Virus record (IMG/VR): IMGVR_UViG_637000265_000004
Strand: one strand, 5' to 3'
DNA length: 32,882 nucleotides
DNA from: a virus
Lineage: Duplodnaviria; Heunggongvirae; Uroviricota; Caudoviricetes
Shown here: positions 18,703 through 18,902 of the stretch, piece by piece
How the letters are laid out: the number at the start of each line of letters is the position of its first letter
Numbering within the stretch: the first letter of the stretch is position 1
Made by a program: the position numbers and the translations under genes
The notes under the pieces: model-generated
The model's input: only the letters and a program-made list of their open reading frames with translations
The model's database searches: none
What the model was told of the DNA's origin: nothing

Positions 18703-18710
18703 CAGAAGCT

Positions 18711-18739
18711 GCGGCACGTCGTATGCAGGAACGTGCCGC
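18711..18739 (+). other. Conserved hairpin downstream of tfa
   Basis: GCGGCACG-13 nt loop-CGTGCCGC; homologous hairpin at 30224..30252 with a compensatory C:G to T:A change. Confidence 0.5.
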
Positions 18740-18902
18740 GGTTGGCTGGTAAACTTTCGATAGTGCGAGTATTGAATGATTTCTAGGCGTTATCGATTTT
18801 ACGTATTTTTTGCATGATAGAATTCGTACCTCCTCCCAACGACCTTCCATGGCTTTCCGGACTTCTGTAGGCTGGCGGACGATGCTGTCCTCGGATGTTG
18901 TG

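Follow-up and report, generated by a model that had tools for sequence, protein, structure and literature searches.

The window analyzed here, a stretch of 32,882 nucleotides of Caudoviricetes DNA (IMG/VR record IMGVR_UViG_637000265_000004), contains two copies of a conserved intergenic element, one at 18705..18802 and the other at 30218..30313. The last late-operon gene before copy 1 is a tfa-like gene on the + strand (18079..18702; DUF4376, Pfam PF14301), and on the far side lies the sitDCBA iron/manganese transporter operon (18903..22352, - strand), which was recognized from Pfam matches (ABC-3 and ZnuA) and the RefSeq annotation of an identical E. coli locus. Copy 1 ends 100 nt before the sitD stop codon, and a sitDCBA transcript would run into it in the - orientation. 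At copy 2, a tfa-like paralogue (27484-28107) precedes an ipaH cassette, in which ipaH itself, the gene for an E3-ligase effector, occupies 28287..29942 on the - strand (Pfam NEL, 9e-77, and LRR_TTSS) and has an exact MxiE box (GTATCGTTTTTTTACAG) at 30062-30078 on the same strand. This arrangement supports the proposal of the initial annotation that ipaH was inserted between tfa and the conserved block, given that at copy 1 the tfa-like stop codon is only 3 nt away. Two canonical intrinsic terminators are present on the + strand near ipaH: one at 28222-28251 (GGAGGCCCGGGGGCGGGCCTCC followed by TTTTT), between a small post-tfa ORF and the ipaH stop codon, and the other at 29999-30026 (TGAAGTTCATTCCATGAAATGAACTTCA followed by a T-run), just upstream of a match to the Rfam family CssrB.

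The repetition of a block of ~75 bp, noted in the initial annotation, was confirmed by alignment (18707-18780 against 30220-30293, 59/75 = 79% identity), but the element proved to be longer, at ~98 nt. Over 99 alignment columns the two full-length copies are 78% identical, and the 60 nt flanking them on each side are only ~50% identical, so the edges are sharp. The 24-nt hairpin core GCACGTCGTATGCAGGAACGTGCC is present at exactly two places in the window when up to three mismatches are allowed, against an expectation of 0.00 (it was never found in 100 shuffles). A covariance model, R1, which was trained exclusively on homologues from other loci, matched copy 1 with 79.1 bits (E 1.6e-16) and copy 2 with 63.3 bits (E 1.1e-12); these were its only matches in the window, also with filters off. 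Copy 2 carries two 1-nt deletions relative to the consensus, and the homologues found with the model range from 94 to 105 nt in length. A copy 100% identical to copy 1, in the same tfa/sitDCBA context, is present in E. coli CFSAN029787.

The element consists of a GC-rich hairpin of 11-13 bp (P1), a helix (P2) that surrounds a nearly invariant core of ~30 nt, and an end motif, GATTTTAC. In copy 1, folding and covariation place P1 at 18707..18743, with 13 pairs and a loop of ~9-11 nt (CGTATGCAGGA); its predicted energy is -24.1 kcal/mol on the + strand (z -5.1) and -17.9 on the - strand. In copy 2, P1 (30220..30256) forms 14 contiguous pairs on the - strand, whereas an A.C mismatch breaks the + strand stem, and the corresponding energies are -21.5 kcal/mol on the - strand (z -5.6) versus -15.5 on the + strand. 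On its better strand each copy therefore has a stable GC-rich stem-loop of the kind found in intrinsic terminators. The hairpin described in the initial annotation, with an 8-bp stem and a 13-nt loop, is thus present with a larger stem. Its account of a single, compensatory stem difference was right as regards the change from C:G to T:A, but there are three differences in all: a G in the 5' arm is replaced by A without compensation, giving A.C on the + strand of copy 2 and G.U on the - strand, and the outer T.G of copy 1 is C-G in copy 2.

P2 spans 18744..18788 in copy 1, where it reads GGCTGG ... CTAGGC, is partly degraded and encloses the core TTCGATAGTGCGAGTATTGAATGA (18756-18779). In copy 2 it was assigned from sequence and fold to 30257..30299 (GGCTGA ... 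TCAGCC, enclosing the core at 30269-30291), and the change from G-C to A-T in this copy is compensatory; seven homologues have AU at columns 57-95.

The model was seeded with 18 gapless copies of the Salmonella/Citrobacter type and three candidate helices, and it retrieved 100 copies in 100 loci. In the alignment of these 100 homologues, which was fitted to the model and comprises phylogenetically related sequences, changes on both sides of a pair were observed for all 13 P1 pairs, 4 of 7 P2 pairs and 17 of 27 pairs overall; 89.3% of the cells were paired, compared with 82.7% after shuffling and 26-43% when the partners were slid; 214 double-change cells were observed versus 68.8 in shuffles; and the covariation score was 0.220, compared with 0.114 for shuffled and at most 0.079 for slid partners. 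Compensatory changes beyond the controls, as expected of a structured RNA, are therefore evident in this model-fitted alignment of related sequences, and the claim that the hairpin is under selection for its structure is upheld. One lineage has exchanged the upper stem and loop of P1 while retaining the lower helix (variant GCCGCAGTA...TACTGCGGC). Mean pairwise identity rises from 62-64% in the P1 arms through 74-78% in the P2 arms and 83% in the P1 loop to 90% in the core, and the core was equally invariant when homologues were selected through the P1 loop instead of the core.

The third candidate helix, P3 (TTCGATA/TATTGAA), never varies among the 100 homologues and shows zero covariation. 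An alternative pairing of TCGATAG with TTATCGA, which appears in the fold of copy 1, was rejected on reading the aligned sequences, as copies of the Salmonella type do not retain it. RNAalifold recovered nothing from a plain MAFFT alignment, because indels in P1 misalign the arms, and only the base of P1 from the model-fitted alignment.

A 128-nt region containing the element found matches in 198 phage records and in 5396 of 5426 complete E. coli genomes, at a median of three places per genome. Its hosts include Stx phages, where it directly follows dinI, e14-like prophages, where it directly follows pinE, and Salmonella/Citrobacter-type prophages, and pattern scans gave further copies in Citrobacter, Pantoea, Escherichia species and many viral contigs. 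The lambda version was also met on low-coverage contigs from unrelated genera (Pseudomonas, Shewanella and others, two of these contigs being ~48 kb, with shorter ones in Streptomyces); these look like contamination of public assemblies with lambda DNA.

In lambda itself, the element lies at 24158-24256, between ea47 and ea31, and is unannotated there, although the b region is among the most studied stretches of DNA. A weak second P1-like hairpin (26 bits) was seen at 22569-22672 of the lambda record J02459, directly after the tfa stop codon, reading GCCGCAGAAACGT...ACGTTCTGCGG and then TTAGTTAGTATATTG. Accordingly, ea47 is bracketed by two related hairpins, which suggests that it was inserted as cargo through recombination at P1. 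At 18745-18752 of the window the element reads GCTGGTAA, and at the corresponding position lambda (24199-24206) and the consensus read GCTGGTGA, which differs by one base from the Chi octamer GCTGGTGG; the chi+B mutations of lambda are located in the b region.

E. coli K-12 MG1655 has a copy at 304213-304310, between ykgJ and ecpE. Inspection of 301500-305500 (yagU-ykgJ-ecpE) revealed a 3' remnant of tfa (Rfam IS009), ykgJ as cargo, the element and a decayed dinI. The proximity of the copy to the tfa remnant and the decayed dinI identifies the locus as a prophage relic, which sits just 3' of the ecp pilus operon, past the ecpE stop codon.

The gene order around the element is recurrent: the stop codon of a tail fibre, tfa or pin gene is followed by the element and then by a convergent DinI-like gene. 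On the left, many loci have 2-20 nt between the last late-gene stop codon and P1; in others a leftward cargo gene comes in between, namely ipaH in the window, ea47 in lambda and ykgJ in K-12, so that the lambda and K-12 arrangements resemble the ipaH cassette at copy 2. In Stx phages, the interposed left-hand cargo is nleC, which is rightward. On the right, ~40 of 85 loci carry a - strand DinI-like gene (Pfam PF06183) whose end is separated from the element by 7 or 26 nt. These genes belong to two families whose proteins share 31% amino-acid identity, and the elements beside them are 78% identical overall and 97% identical in the core. Possible overlap of the block with an attachment-site core was checked and none was found: in Stx2_EH2201 the attR duplication lies ~470 nt beyond the block, and the cargo genes sitDCBA separate copy 1 from host genes. 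Taken together, the conservation, boundaries, covarying helices, non-coding nature and context establish the element as a genuine, discrete, structured non-coding module of ~100 nt in lambdoid phages and prophages. The initial annotation was confirmed in part as an observation and supported in part as an interpretation.

Part of the module is already present in Rfam under another name. The region 30071..30253 (+ strand) matches CssrB (RF02799) over model positions 1-180 of 180 with 151.6 bits, well above the gathering threshold of 76, yet only its last ~35 nt, which are P1 of copy 2, belong to the element. The 3' terminal hairpin of the CssrB model is thus the P1 hairpin of copy 2, a correspondence that the initial annotation had not remarked. 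Copy 1 does not reach the threshold, matching at 18685-18740 with 30.3 bits through the 3' hairpin alone, and an element from a Salmonella-type prophage gave no Rfam match whatever, CssrB included, at E values up to 10. No Rfam family covers the whole element, CssrB reaching only P1. CssrB was described as chromosome-encoded Shigella sRNA B on the basis of a ~180-nt northern band obtained with a strand-specific probe (Peng et al. 2011, PMC3071730); its 3' end was assigned by terminator prediction and left unmapped, and its 5' end was computed from the size of the band (PMC3071730).

The body of CssrB, the ~150 nt upstream of P1, begins at the MxiE box of ipaH and is specific to Shigella and EIEC, whereas the element extends 60 nt past the CssrB end and occurs without that body in copy 1, lambda and Stx phages. 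In a locus of the Shigella-like E. coli ECMA0423 (1380-2800 of that locus), CssrB scores 230 bits, and after P1 the element is cut short and a T-run follows. Further on come an unrelated gene on the opposite strand, the remnant of a tfa gene and a second element, this one complete. Given that this truncated arrangement matches CssrB more strongly, it is probably the one that the Rfam seed reflects. Considered with the predicted 3' end and the start of the body at the MxiE box, the truncation after P1 indicates that CssrB is a Shigella-specific stretch joined to a widespread phage hairpin; the Rfam family is, in other words, a composite.

The initial annotation stated that there is no U-tract after the hairpin. 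This is true of the + strand, on which the aligned homologues never have a U-run directly after P1 and continue instead with GGCTGG..., TTGGCTGG... or CCGACTGG..., but on the - strand a T-rich tail (at least 5 T in 8) follows P1 in both copies, at 18695..18706 in copy 1 (TCTGTTATTCC, overlapping the tfa stop codon) and at 30205..30219 in copy 2 (TTTCCTTTACGATTT). Among the homologues, the - strand tail is T-rich in 26 of 70 distinct flanks (37%, against a background of 7.5%), with a mean of 4.3 T in 10 compared with 2.6 in the background. The further statement that the hairpin is not a classical terminator had been judged from one strand and, in view of these tails, is not supported. The - strand U-run is missing in lambda and in most copies of the Salmonella type, so classical termination is not a universal function of the element. 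A consensus terminator scan made no call at P1; the scan is uninformative here because it allows loops of 3-8 nt and the P1 loop has 9-11 nt, which is itself unusual for a terminator, as is the conservation of the loop sequence.

The pairing pattern of P1 differs between the strands. Read as the + strand, 1032 of 1216 P1 cells are Watson-Crick, and among the non-Watson-Crick cells A.C outnumbers G.T by 112 to 34. The share of P1 cells that pair is therefore 94.1% for - strand RNA versus 87.7% for + strand RNA. The commonest hairpin of the Salmonella type contains three A.C-type positions and has a predicted energy of -19.9 kcal/mol on the - strand versus -13.0 on the + strand. P1 of copy 1 and of the Stx-phage type folds better on the + strand, and P2 shows no strand bias (28 versus 22).

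At the right edge of the element, a -10-like hexamer occupies a fixed alignment position on the - strand. It reads TAAAAT in copy 1 (18796..18801), and among the 100 homologues it is TAAAAT in 48, TACAAT in 27 and TAGAAT in 7, with ~88% fitting TAnnnT. In copy 2 it forms the -10 part of a promoter-like sequence, TTGAAT-18-TAAAAT (30307..30336, - strand; 9 of 12 consensus matches), and similar sequences are present in related loci. Pairs of -35 and -10 sequences were found in two flank types (TTGAAC-16-TACAAT and TTGAAT-18-TAAAAT); no -35 match was found in the flanks of copy 1, of the dinI type or of the lambda type. A -35 of at least 4/6 is present in 39% of distinct flanks compared with 12% in the background, although these flanks represent only about three independent types.

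From these signals we infer the transcribed strand, a contribution to termination and a possible small RNA. The reading that we prefer, to which we assign a probability of about 45%, is that the element serves leftward accessory genes at the tail-fibre junction as a transcript-end module and is possibly the source of a small RNA. At this junction the rightward late tail-fibre operon faces leftward accessory genes, ancestrally a LexA-type DinI-like gene and, in the window, sitDCBA at copy 1 or the ipaH cassette region at copy 2. The element would be read as RNA mainly on the - strand of the window, and P1 would end or stabilize the leftward transcript, acting as an intrinsic terminator where a U-run is present, as in both window copies. 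By so doing, P1 may keep accessory-gene transcription from entering the tfa and tail-fibre genes in the antisense direction. P2 and the invariant core, which lie upstream of P1 on the - strand, may constitute a conserved 3'-UTR-like or small-RNA module, perhaps transcribed from a separate promoter, with the TAnnnT sequence at the right edge as the -10. Lambda b-region deletions show that the region is dispensable for laboratory growth, so any role of the element would be regulatory or concern the lysogen.

A bolder form of this reading makes the element a hitherto undescribed family of structured sRNA genes of ~100 nt, whose - strand transcripts would start at the TAnnnT promoter and end at P1, and which would be present in lambda and nearly all E. 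coli; we regard this as unlikely, though by no means negligible. Were it true, an RNA or protein partner would recognize the surface formed by the invariant ~30-nt loop, and the RNA could, for example, govern read-through where SOS-induced accessory genes adjoin the late tail-fibre operon, or act in trans in lysogens.

The experimental signals that were found, the CssrB northern band of ~180 nt and an Hfq peak known from coordinates in an older record, are on the + strand only, and they are among the grounds for a rival reading, doubtful in our view but still the strongest competitor, in which the element provides the structured 3' end of late tail-fibre operon transcripts, or of those from upstream morons. 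P1 would then be a stabilizer or processing stop, and the 3' hairpin of CssrB, and the core a platform for Hfq binding or processing. P1 begins within 2-20 nt of a tail fibre, tfa or pin stop codon in many loci, the CssrB family terminates exactly at P1, P1 of copy 1 and of the Stx type is more stable on this strand, and an invariant G.U in candidate helix P3 pairs on the + strand only. The Hfq CRAC peak EcOnc47 (Tree et al. 2014; 2896476-2896522, - strand, equivalent to the + strand of the element) lies at or just 3' of the copy in Sakai prophage Sp15 (2896542-2896638 of NC_002695.2), but the peak coordinates are older and the record has since grown by 128 bp in total. In the same older coordinates, EcOnc47 is antisense to the 3' end of the Sp15 dinI gene. 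A second Hfq peak, EcOnc31, was rejected as a copy of the element, as it sits in the non-lambda-type end of Sp5 and no model match was obtained there. Against the + strand reading are the constant lack of a U-tract after P1 on that strand, the excess of A.C over G.T in P1, the lack of any covariation in P3, the predicted, unmapped 3' end of CssrB (PMC3071730) and the truncation of the element right after P1 in the Sf301-like version. It is less probable still that both strands are used and that the element is a bidirectional insulator between convergent units, with P1 serving both and the core being kept for a sequence-specific protein or RNA partner. The constant position between convergent units, the high proportion of Watson-Crick P1 cells (as expected if each strand must pair), the difference in strand preference among lineages and the near invariance of the core all agree with such an insulator; the + strand has no U-run, however, and the predictions are hard to tell from those of the two single-strand readings.

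Two further explanations dispense with RNA function. Homology maintained solely at the DNA level, as a mosaic joint at which lambdoid recombination swaps cargo, would account for the abrupt change of flank at both edges, the many different cargo modules on either side, the duplication of hairpins around cargo in lambda (22569-22672 and 24158-24256) and in ECMA0423, and the dispensability of the lambda region. Pure homology predicts neither compensatory changes in 17 of 27 pairs nor stems that are only 62-64% identical and still ~90% paired, and it leaves the replaced upper stem-loop with its preserved helix (GCCGCAGTA...TACTGCGGC) unexplained; we consider it highly improbable. To the idea that the element is the decayed 3' end of a protein gene, or a small ORF, we attach next to no probability. 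In its favor, the RefSeq pipeline PGAP places pseudogene fragments of 22-29 codons, named 'capsid protein', on the element, some lambda annotations contain an ORF of 63 or 69 amino acids, and - strand hypothetical proteins are annotated in lambda imm434 and HK629. The two annotators that call ORFs on the element choose different frames, however, and element lengths of 94-105 nt differ by single bases rather than by multiples of three, which excludes coding. A coding remnant was also rejected because of 1-nt indels, among them an insertion in the Salmonella type that breaks the 'RMQE...' frame, and stop codons in all frames of copy 1. The ORFs have no PHROG or NCBIfam match, so the 'capsid protein' fragments are unsupported as coding; these calls are probably a propagated mis-annotation.

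Like intrinsic (Rho-independent) terminators, the element has a GC-rich hairpin at a convergent junction, with a T-run on one strand in both window copies. It differs in that its U-run, often absent, is not part of the conserved block and in that the loop of 9-11 nt is conserved, and a plain intrinsic terminator has no counterpart of the additional conserved, structured 60 nt. Some 3'-UTR-derived sRNAs share the terminator of their mRNA, among them DapZ and MicL, which have an internal promoter, and CpxQ, which arises by processing. The element likewise starts 7-26 nt from a coding-sequence stop codon (that of the DinI-like gene), is bordered on its 5' side by a -10-like hexamer and, as modeled, has a conserved core that looks single-stranded together with a terminal hairpin. 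It departs from these sRNAs in that several flank types are without a -35 and no complementarity beyond chance was detected in lambda or the window, a search for complementarity and repeats having returned only 10-11-mers, at about the level estimated for chance.

The sib/tI retroregulator, a structured RNA signal encoded in the lambda b region, exerts its effect at the 3' end of a leftward transcript. By analogy, the element is proposed to be a structured b-region RNA with a similar position at a leftward 3' end; sib/tI lies at ~27.5 kb, compared with 24.2 kb for the element, and the two sequences are unrelated. The moron and mosaic-boundary architecture of lambdoid phages has been described (Juhala et al. 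2000, as cited in PMC4104026). The element is situated exactly at such a point of cargo exchange, with ipaH, nleC, ea47 or ykgJ on the left and sitABCD, ea31-ea59, dinI or defence genes on the right. It has covarying helices, which to our knowledge are not a feature of lambdoid mosaic boundary sequences.

Rfam covers the element only marginally, and the literature searched yielded no description of it as such; searches there for a terminator in the lambda b region, for an sRNA linked to dinI and for the core or loop sequence were likewise negative. Given that the core is 97% identical beside DinI proteins that are 31% identical, that compensatory changes are present and that more than 99% of E. 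coli genomes carry the element, it is a good candidate for a new RNA family. It also provides a practical landmark for a cargo hotspot at which ipaH, nleC, sitABCD and defence genes are found. Elsewhere in the window, the phage-like left part contains a match to the sok antitoxin RNA (Rfam RF01794, alias CssrC) at 7728-7902 and a cluster of four tRNA genes at 11019-11326.
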